IMG/VR virus record: IMGVR_UViG_2859777919_000008 | Length of the DNA: 22,920 bases | From: a virus | Taxonomy: Duplodnaviria; Heunggongvirae; Uroviricota; Caudoviricetes | Direction: 5' to 3' (one strand) | In this document: positions 15,937-17,624 of the stretch, piece by piece | How positions within the stretch are numbered: the first letter of the stretch is position 1 | Layout of the letters: each line of letters opens with the position of its first letter | Position numbers and translations under genes: made by a program | The notes under the pieces: generated by a model | The model's input: the letters and a program-made list of their open reading frames with translations, nothing else | Database searches by the model: none | What the model was told of the DNA's origin: nothing

Positions 15937-15957
15937 TGTAACGCTGCGAGCGTTACA
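15937..15957. repeat. palindrome TGTAACGCT-gcg-AGCGTTACA (copy 1 of 3)
   Basis: Perfect 9-bp arms with 3-bp spacer, 13 bp upstream of the replication gene ATG; related copies at 17396-17416 and 17606-17624. Confidence 0.5.
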
Positions 15958-16119
15958 AGGTGAAAACAAATGGCTTCAAACTGGATAAAGCTCGAGGTTA
16001 TTACGCCGGATAAGCCGGAAATATTCAGGCTTGCTGAGATTCTGAATATTGATCCAGATGCCGCATTAGGGAAGGTTGAGGTGTACTGGCAATAGCGGAC
16101 ACTACCATTTGTTCTTTTT

Positions 16120-16938
16120 TTAAGCAGCCATCTGATGATATTTTTCCCTGAAGGCTGCCGGGGAGATATTCCCCAGACGAGAGTGACGACGCTGACGATT
16201 GTAGAAAATCTCAATGTATTCCCGTATTACTGAGATGGCTTCATCCCGGTTATTAAAACGATAGTGGCTCAGGCTCTCATTTTTCAGCGTTCCCCAGAAG
16301 CTTTCCATCGGAGCGTTGTCGTAACAGTTACCTTTACGCGACATTGATGTTTTCAGACCAGACTGCTCCTGTATGACCCGGTAATCGTATGCGCAGTACT
16401 GTGAACCTCGATCAGAGTGGTGGATTAGCCCGGCAGGTGGGCGCTGGCTCCTGAGCGCCATAAACAGGGCTTTACCTGTCAGCTCTTTTGTCATGCGCTC
16501 TCCCATGGCGTAGCCGACAATTTCGCACGTATAAACATCTTTGATGCCAGCAAGGTACAACCATCCCTCCTGTGTGGCAACATACGTCAGGTCCGCCACC
16601 CAGACCTGATTTGGTGCTGTAGGAGCGAACGTCTGGTTCAGCAGATTTGGCGCAACTGGCAGATTGTGGTTCGAGTTCGTAGTCGCTCTGAACTTGCGTT
16701 TCTGCTTACAGCGTAGCCTTAGCTCCTTACGAAGACGTGCCAGTCGGTCACGACCAACGATGATGCCATTCTCTGCCAGCTCCGTCTGGAGCCGCCGGGT
16801 TCCATATGTTTCGCGAGTGCGGATATGTGCCACCTTAATCTCCAGTTTTAGCCGCTCATCACTTTGTTTTCTGTCTGAGGGTTCATGCTGTACCCAGTTG
16901 TAATAACCGCTCCTGGATACACCAAATACCTGACACAT
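16120..16938 (-). CDS. IS600 OrfB (DDE transposase)
   Basis: 272 aa MCQVFGVSRSGYYNWVQHEP...HSDRGSQYCAYDYRVIQEQSGLKTSMSRKGNCYDNAPMESFWGTLKNE..., recognisable as IS600 OrfB. Confidence 0.9.
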   Translation of the reverse strand: MCQVFGVSRSGYYNWVQHEPSDRKQSDERLKLEIKVAHIRTRETYGTRRLQTELAENGIIVGRDRLARLRKELRLRCKQKRKFRATTNSNHNLPVAPNLLNQTFAPTAPNQVWVADLTYVATQEGWLYLAGIKDVYTCEIVGYAMGERMTKELTGKALFMALRSQRPPAGLIHHSDRGSQYCAYDYRVIQEQSGLKTSMSRKGNCYDNAPMESFWGTLKNESLSHYRFNNRDEAISVIREYIEIFYNRQRRHSRLGNISPAAFREKYHQMAA

Positions 16939-16973
16939 CGCTTCAATGGGAAATTGTTGTCGCCATTGTTCGA

Positions 16974-17276
16974 TTAACGCGTATTTTTCAGCGACTCCTG
17001 TGCAAAATACGCTGTTGCTTTTTTTAATATATCTCGCTCAAGGCGAGCTTCATTTAACGCCTTACGCAGTTGCAGAATTTCAGATTCCAGTTCAGCCACC
17101 GTGCGGGAACCAGGAGTACCGAGCCCTTTTCTGGCGGCGGTAACCCATTGTCCTAAAGTGCCTTCAGGAAGAGATAATCGGGAAGCGCCTTCACTGATCG
17201 AAAGTTGATTTTCAAGAACCGTTCTGACAGCTTCGGCTTTGAACTCTTTAGAGTAACGTTGGGTTTTTCTGCTCAT
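16974..17276 (-). CDS. IS600 OrfA
   Basis: 100 aa, recognisable as IS600 OrfA. Confidence 0.9.
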   Translation of the reverse strand: MSRKTQRYSKEFKAEAVRTVLENQLSISEGASRLSLPEGTLGQWVTAARKGLGTPGSRTVAELESEILQLRKALNEARLERDILKKATAYFAQESLKNTR

Positions 17277-17395
17277 TATTAGCTCCTTCTGATGCCATTC
17301 TATTTCAGGAAGGAGTGTCCGTTAAACTCAGGCTACCTCAGGTTATTCGCTTCTGGGCATGGGCGGATCAACAAATGATAGACGGTAATGCAGAT

Positions 17396-17416
17396 TGTAA
17401 CGCTCGCGGCGTTACA
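17396..17416. repeat. palindrome TGTAACGC-tcgcg-GCGTTACA (copy 2 of 3)
   Basis: 8-bp arms inside the replication gene coding sequence (codons for DCNARGVTK). Confidence 0.5.
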
Positions 17417-17605
17417 AAAAGTGCAATAGATCGCATCACTTTTATGTCTGGTTTTGCTGATGCGTTAATTCAGGTTGGATGGCTGGTCGAAAATGACGGA
17501 GGGCTTTCTCTACCTAACTTTGAACGTCATAACGGAAAAAGCTCTAAAAAAAACGGGCGGTTACAAACGAGCGAGTAACAAAAATACGCGAACTGAAACG
17601 AAAAG

Positions 17606-17624
17606 GTAACGCTGCCAGCGTTAC
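17606..17624. repeat. palindrome GTAACGCT-gcc-AGCGTTAC (copy 3 of 3)
   Basis: 8-bp arms in the linker between the replication gene stop and the DnaT-like ORF. Confidence 0.5.

Follow-up and report, generated by a model that had tools for sequence, protein, structure and literature searches.

Palindromic sites within and beside a broken prophage initiator gene as a candidate replication origin

The locus and its palindromes

IMG/VR record IMGVR_UViG_2859777919_000008 is a stretch of viral DNA of 22,920 nucleotides (nt), analysed here at its full length and referred to as the window. It contains a replication initiator gene, with its ATG at 15970, that has been split by IS600, and three palindromes, designated S1, S2 and S3, that lie in and just before this gene. 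The palindrome arms are perfect inverted repeats of 7-9 base pairs (bp) around a variable centre of 3-5 bp, a dyad symmetry that would suit an initiator dimer. S3 is followed by an additional half-site and a polypurine tract. The features, in window coordinates, are as follows.

15937-15957, no strand assigned: S1, TGTAACGCT-GCG-AGCGTTACA; non-coding, 13 nt before the ATG of the initiator gene, immediately 5′ of its Shine-Dalgarno sequence
15970-16076, plus strand: initiator gene, 5′ fragment; codons 1-35 and the first two bases of codon 36, where IS600 interrupts the gene
16077-17343, minus strand: IS600 (16077-17340), with terminal inverted repeats, and the second GGT copy (17341-17343)
17344-18017, plus strand: initiator gene, 3′ part; a pseudogene, traced by alignment to the intact homologue L001 and by three-frame translation
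17396-17416, no strand assigned: S2, TGTAACGC-TCGCG-GCGTTACA; within the region coding for the N-terminal domain (N-domain), codons 54-60, CNARGVT
17606-17624(25), no strand assigned: S3, GTAACGCT-GCC-AGCGTTAC(A), the right arm through 17625 being AGCGTTACA; in DNA coding for the linker between the N-domain and the C-terminal domain (C-domain)
17641-17648, no strand assigned: additional half-site GCGTTAC (17641-17647) plus C, adjoining the polypurine tract
17649-17669, plus strand: polypurine tract AGAGGAAGAGGAAGAGGAAGA, 21 nt, encoding EEEEEED; candidate unwinding or loading element

The window contains exactly three copies of the pattern GTAACGC-N5-GCGTTAC, starting at 15938, 17397 and 17606. 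When the spacer was allowed to vary from 3 to 7 nt, three copies were observed against 0.00 expected from 100 dinucleotide-preserving shuffles of the window, which excludes chance. At two mismatches, neither the 22.9-kb window nor a complete related phage of 38.7 kb yielded an additional palindrome. The 7-mer half-site is present 11 times in the window (2.35 expected), and seven of these copies fall within the palindrome region. All of the palindromes in the window are still perfect, although the initiator has been lost. A separate everted pair, GGTTACA-N8-GAGTAACA at 17559-17580 (GTTAC...GTAAC), has the reverse orientation to the palindromes; it encodes AVTNERVT, within the basic region that directly follows the N-domain, and is not seen in most relatives.

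Reading of the window sequence confirmed the three palindromes at the positions given in the first-pass annotation. Its estimate that they would lie about 190 and 210 bp apart without IS600 also proved accurate, since start-to-start spacings of 192 and 209 bp remain once IS600 and the duplication (1267 bp) are removed. The first-pass annotation had further placed the sites upstream of, inside and downstream of the replication gene. This holds for S1 and S2, respectively; S3, however, lies inside the intact frame, in linker-coding DNA. It had appeared to lie past the gene end because two extra A's at 17546-47 (a +2 frameshift) create a premature stop, giving an apparent gene end at 17578.

The initiator family and the sites in its relatives

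The reconstructed locus DNA has a match in 1,505 of the 5,426 complete E. coli genomes; the matching place lies in Rac-type prophages, with ydaT on one side and ydaV on the other. Inducible phages, for example vB_EcoS-666R9, are matched as well. The intact homologue of the window initiator (L001, 3371-4159), a protein of 262 amino acids (aa), matches PHROG 2509, ‘replication initiation protein’; pipeline annotations of family members are ‘hypothetical’, ‘primosomal protein I’ or ‘replication protein O’. For the window-type initiator, its N-terminal ~115 aa included, no Pfam family was detected at E-values (E) up to 0.1. At E up to 1, searches with 26 diverse members gave weak unrelated matches (CpeS, MBT) alone and none to Phage_rep_O, and PDB sequences yielded no match to the N-terminal ~115 aa. 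A profile of the N-domain retrieved 9,409 cluster representatives (50% identity) at E ≤1e-3 among 1.84 billion proteins, 2,096 of these clusters at E ≤1e-30. The C-domains across the family vary and include YdaU-type, DnaT-type and others. The AlphaFold model predicts that the N-domain is laid out as a helix-turn-helix plus a beta-hairpin. Its fold matches are weak and mostly to winged-helix DNA-binding or origin-binding domains and phage replisome organisers. Outside the family, the viral proteins closest in fold carry the annotation of replisome organisers (E 7e-4, template-modelling (TM) score 0.67, a weak match), and the N-terminal domain of Streptococcus phage Abc2 also matches weakly (E 7e-3). 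An NAxxV[TS] peptide (GNAxSV[TS]) is found between residues 40 and 70 in 118 of 141 additional top family representatives.

Conservation of the sites was followed in a set of 19 genome loci from Serratia, Yersinia, Pantoea, Erwinia, Rahnella, Pectobacterium and others. Intact close homologues have the three sites at −32, +161 and +368 from the ATG, and all three are present in intact E. coli prophages and in phage vB_EcoS-666R9. Examples of intact homologous proteins are WP_038340159.1 of E. coli FDAARGOS_944 and URC10127.1 of vB_EcoS-666R9. S2 and S3 are kept at 61-73% aa identity in Serratia, Yersinia, Pantoea, Erwinia, Rahnella, Pectobacterium, Mixta and Samsonia, most of them with S1 as well. 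Where present, S1 lies at −54 to −13 from the ATG (Rac-like E. coli prophages; Serratia, Yersinia, Pantoea, Erwinia, Mixta and Winslowiella). BUCT554, ZX5, TL-2011b and a Klebsiella prophage, at ~68% nt identity, have two perfect sites with a spacing of 209 bp, and a member on a metagenomic contig of 63% GC still carries the sites. S3 is conserved most widely; its position ranges from +344 to +425 across 51 distinct loci. When IMG/VR was scanned by the DNA pattern TGTAACGC-N5-GCGTTACA alone, at least 120 loci were recovered, and an N-domain homologue (hmmsearch) was encoded at 107 of the 120 matches listed, representing 57 distinct sequences, a result that marks the site as specific to this family. 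In the complete 38.7-kb phage the sites are confined to the initiator locus; as judged from the genomes compared, they are unique to the initiator gene.

The spacing of the sites is looser than their sequence. S2 and S3 are separated by 184-264 bp in relatives (300 bp in phiPSA1), and site spacings among class A relatives are 182-264 bp; two sites 23 bp apart, or nested half-sites, occur in some relatives alone. We considered helical phasing between S2 and S3, found no consistent phase across relatives and dropped the claim of a looping phase. The S1-to-S2 distances cluster at 182, 192/193 and 202-204 bp, which are steps of about one helical turn, S1 being non-coding. This clustering, seen in few independent lineages, hints at placement on the same face of the DNA. 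In one locus (L154, IMGVR_UViG_2731957942_000002), identical sites stand at −225, −32 and +161, exactly 193 bp apart, and the 5′ gene segment is repeated. The arrangement suggests that the S1-S2 unit was duplicated in tandem, perhaps through recombination between the sites.

To separate constraint on the DNA from constraint on the protein, we aligned 22 loci by codon (median nt identity 0.68). Third codon positions have a mean conservation of 0.58, and only 11 of 118 reach 0.9 or more; five of these belong to Met or Trp codons, one is that of K104 and the remaining five are within S2. The S2 third positions, in NGT, AAC, NGC and GTT, are conserved at 0.91-1.00, and for the outer-edge codons NGT and NGC the encoded amino acids differ among loci. 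S3 is read in an alternative frame in BUCT554, ZX5, TL-2011b and Samsonia (QNVTRTALQ vs KGNAASVTQ). In the site logo the 5-bp spacer carries little information, whereas the arms are invariant at ~68% nt identity; because the sites were collected at ≤1 mismatch, the arm information is partly built in, and the low information of spacer and flanks is independent of this. The residues encoded by S2 form a loop with a predicted local distance difference test (pLDDT) score below 50 in the AlphaFold model, and S3 encodes the interdomain linker, so that the protein can tolerate a DNA-imposed sequence at both places. A subfamily without S2 also lacks the GNAxSVT peptide. Given that S1 is non-coding, that the frame of S3 shifts and that the edge codons specify varying amino acids, the GNAxSVT peptide appears to be an imprint of the DNA site. 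These alignments show the sites to be under selection at the level of the DNA, independently of the encoded protein.

The sequence of the sites also differs between members of the family, members with divergent N-domains having other palindromes at corresponding positions. The arms are CTAACGC/GCGTTAG in both sites of locus L107; in epsilon15 and phiPSA1 they read GTCCGC/GCGGAC, with sites at +66 and +345/+366; in Ralstonia phage Raharianne the sites at +154 and +370 are GTAGACG/CGTCTAC; and those of Vibrio phage 1.211.A are GTCAC/GTGAC. Two comparisons indicate which part of the system these changes follow. Phage epsilon15 and the metagenomic locus L240 agree in their DnaT-type C-domain and almost entirely in the downstream DNA, yet each has its own N-domain and its own site class, which disfavours a host factor or the C-domain as the reader of the sites. 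Conversely, YdaU of the K-12 Rac prophage has the same C-terminal half as the window initiator, but its N-domain is DUF1376 (2.7e-26) and the GTAACGC half-site is absent from its locus; DUF1376 has no match in the window-type initiator protein. These differences led us to reject K-12 Rac as a model for the window locus, and they indicate that the sites belong to an N-terminal module swapped into a Rac backbone. Across the phages compared, site sequence thus tracks the N-domain rather than the host, the C-domain or the neighbouring genes.

The DNA beyond S3 is similarly patterned. In most of the 51 distinct loci, a half-site lies 12-35 bp past S3 and is joined via a C to a polypurine tract, which in relatives takes the form AGAGAAGAGAAG... 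or AGAGGAAGAGGAAG..., giving the junction half-site-C-AGAG.... The longest purine run 3′ of S3 has a median of 21 nt in the 51 loci, compared with 6 (median) and 15 (99th percentile) in the background. In the other classes, the half-site at the junction matches the class: GCGGAC-C in epsilon15 and phiPSA1, and GCGACTAC-C in Raharianne. The tract is read in different frames among relatives (LPREEKRREE, LPEKRREEK and LPEEEEEED), and hence it too looks like a DNA element. Among near-identical prophages (the window, L129, L139, L224, L118, L173, L175 and L166), the (GAGGAA)n tract is 15, 21, 27 or 51 nt long, a variation that fits hexamer slippage adding or removing Glu-Glu in the linker. Three GATC (Dam) sites within 52 bp (17632-17683) flank the half-site and tract; they are not conserved outside the E. 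coli relatives.

A candidate origin and competing explanations

The explanation that we favour, with a probability of roughly 60%, is that the palindromes are dimer recognition sites of the prophage's own initiator and form an origin located within the gene for this protein. The protein would be bimodular, with an N-terminal ~115-aa, winged-helix-like domain that reads the sites and an exchangeable C-domain, here YdaU-type, that presumably recruits the DnaC-like YdaV, its presumed partner, together with the host helicase. The likely origin core would be S3 with the adjacent half-site and polypurine tract, in linker-coding DNA at 17606-17669. S2, ~200 bp 5′ of S3, and S1, ~200 bp further 5′, would then be auxiliary sites, perhaps stabilising a looped or wrapped complex; alternatively, S1 might serve in autoregulation of the initiator gene. 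We infer that the N-domain binds the sites, that the sites fire replication and that the tract is the place of DNA opening or helicase loading. The first-pass annotation had likewise read the palindromes as a plausible initiator-binding or origin element, and this idea gains support from the conserved positions (intact homologues keep the three sites at the same relative places), from the uniqueness of the sites to the initiator locus of the complete related phage, where they might have been dense genome-wide, from the DNA-level constraint and from the tracking of the N-domain. Its description of a regular array, on the other hand, needs qualifying, as the sites are neither regular nor tandem in the lambda fashion, and the likely core of S3, half-site and tract is an addition to it.

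In phage lambda, the origin lies inside the O gene, at the DNA for the linker between the origin-binding and loader-recruiting domains, and its repeats have hyphenated dyad symmetry with two initiator subunits on each (PMC6022878). The present locus resembles it in that S2 and S3 are inside the reconstructed open reading frame, with S3 at the linker between a conserved N-domain and a variable C-domain, and in both cases a compositionally skewed stretch stands beside the repeats. The arrangement is different, however. In lambda a 39-bp high-AT region follows four tandem 18-bp iterons, whereas here the dyad sites number one to three, lie 180-300 bp from one another and are accompanied by a half-site and by a polypurine tract that lacks AT richness; moreover, the N-domain is not Phage_rep_O by sequence, in contrast to lambda O. 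The most economical reading is a lambda-like logic in a different layout, with dispersed dyad sites and with a polypurine tract in place of the AT-rich element. G38P of Bacillus phage SPP1 binds an origin (oriL) within its own gene. Any likeness of the window initiator to G38P (Phage_rep_org_N) would be at the level of fold, through a weak match to replisome organisers; the sequence relationship is undetectable, and the repeats and host range differ.

For the Rac prophage of K-12 an active origin named oriJ has been reported (PMC3945230). This prophage has the same slot, ydaS-ydaT-initiator-ydaV, a near-identical C-domain and the same DnaC-like partner, and differs in the DUF1376 N-domain of YdaU and in having no GTAACGC site. 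On this basis the window element would be a distinct origin-specificity module that a Rac-type prophage acquired by swapping. In the K-12-type Rac ydaU (L002, 3696-3762) there are three copies of GTTCAAACA/TGTTTGAAC within ~60 bp of linker-coding DNA, and these repeats may be the iterons of oriJ, forming a different specificity module in the same slot.

Several observations weigh against an origin embedded in the initiator gene. The layout is unlike that of characterised origins, the sites being 180-300 bp apart and not tandem. S1 is absent from many relatives and S2 from one subfamily, S3 with the polypurine tract is the sole general combination across the family, and in a few members, including PAN70 and L187, the tract itself is absent. 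No AT-rich block adjoins S3 (the maximum, 73% AT in 30 nt, is upstream of S1), and the reconstructed region contains neither an IHF core nor a match to the DnaA box TTATCCACA with up to one mismatch. The palindromes might just as well fold into hairpins. In the literature we found no binding or origin-activity experiment for any family member, and no description of the sites in a survey whose scope excluded subscription journals, where an earlier description is possible.

The strongest competing explanation, which we nevertheless consider unlikely, is that the sites are operators only, bound by the initiator or by another phage protein to control the expression of the replication operon, with S1 acting as a roadblock and S2 and S3 by looping, while the true origin lies elsewhere. 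S1 is directly 5′ of the ribosome-binding site and has no promoter or terminator of its own (neither was predicted, and 15200-16080 contains no terminator-like site), the dispersed ~200-bp spacing is closer to that of looping operators than to tandem iterons, and the lack of an AT-rich unwinding element would also fit. However, S3, the most conserved of the sites, is well inside the gene, where a conserved half-site and polypurine tract adjoin it, an odd location for an operator, and S1 is dispensable in many lineages. The complete phage genome, furthermore, has no other copy of the site that could mark a separate origin. SPP1-type initiators bind origins inside their own genes. The same is true of the characterised lambdoid initiators (PMC6022878).

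We see still less reason to regard the palindromes as RNA or single-stranded DNA hairpins that act in mRNA stability or processing, or in primosome assembly or single-strand initiation read by DnaT-like machinery. As single-stranded DNA, each palindrome folds to an 8-9-bp stem of −7.6 to −9.4 kcal/mol (z −3.9 to −5.8), pairing is preserved across the specificity classes and some relatives have a DnaT-type C-domain. Against this, the arms are sequence-invariant within a class at ~68% nt identity, without compensatory drift, and arm changes occur jointly in all sites of one phage, which argues for a sequence-specific reader rather than for structure alone. Half-sites of identical sequence that have no pairing partner are likewise conserved beside the tract, and a T run (U in RNA), as expected of an intrinsic terminator or attenuator, is absent 3′ of all three sites.

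The least probable explanations, which we regard as largely excluded, are that a host factor conserved in Proteobacteria binds the sites or that they are a by-product of the GNAxSVT peptide: class A sites do occur in phages of hosts from Enterobacterales to Xanthomonas and the peptide is widespread in the family, but related phages of closely related hosts differ in site class together with the N-domain (epsilon15 vs ZX5, BUCT554 and L240), and the peptide cannot account for a non-coding S1, for an S3 in another frame in some phages or for edge codons that vary in amino acid, and it is missing where S2 is missing.

If the sites do form an origin read by the initiator, the locus offers a sequence-level prediction of the replication origin and the specificity determinants of a very large initiator family. 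This family is found in temperate and virulent phages of Proteobacteria, among them Rac-like prophages of E. coli and Shigella and epsilon15-like phages, and also in Xanthomonas CP2-like, Pseudomonas, Ralstonia and Vibrio phages. The embedded origin would explain the conservation of two odd peptide motifs in the initiators, would predict prophages able to cross-activate each other's origins and would provide a candidate unwinding element that is not AT-rich. Going further, we speculate that this origin design is new among phages: one dyad site and a half-site would place the initiator beside a polypurine-polypyrimidine tract of (GAGAA)n or (GAGGAA)n, which in place of an AT-rich element would be where opening or loading occurs, and one or two distant dyad sites ~200 bp apart, in surface-loop codons and in the 5′ untranslated region, would close a DNA loop. 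We offer this proposal tentatively and think it somewhat doubtful. Were it true, GNAxSVT and LPREEKRRE would be imprints of cis-acting DNA and not functional protein motifs, and the classes GTAACGC, GTCCGC, GTAGACG and GTCAC would amount to a readable code of origin-initiator compatibility among mosaic phages.

Decay of the replication module

Two genes flank the initiator in the window.

15471-15892, plus strand: ydaT-like gene, upstream of the initiator; frameshifted by a 1-bp deletion at ~15509 (after the annotation of L001)
18024-18770, plus strand: ydaV-type gene for a DnaC-like helicase loader; an intact open reading frame (after the annotation of homologues)

The initiator gene itself is broken three times. 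IS600 is bounded by a GGT target duplication (16074-76 and 17341-43), and the +2 frameshift described above is followed by a second frame break, a 10-bp deletion after 17683. The replication module is decaying as a whole, through IS600, the two initiator frame breaks and the ydaT-like deletion, with ydaV spared. With its initiator broken by IS600 and two frameshifts, the replication system is dead in cis. The window palindromes could act only with a related initiator supplied in trans, and a prophage that retains intact origin sites after loss of its initiator would not replicate autonomously.

IS600 is present three times in the 23 kb: the complete copy at 16077-17340, a copy at 21721-22920 that runs off the window end and a partial copy at 13693-14404 (IS600 positions 553-1264). 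The first two are 99.8% identical. Three copies of IS600 in one window are typical of Shigella-type genome erosion, and Shigella flexneri is among the closest intact matches.

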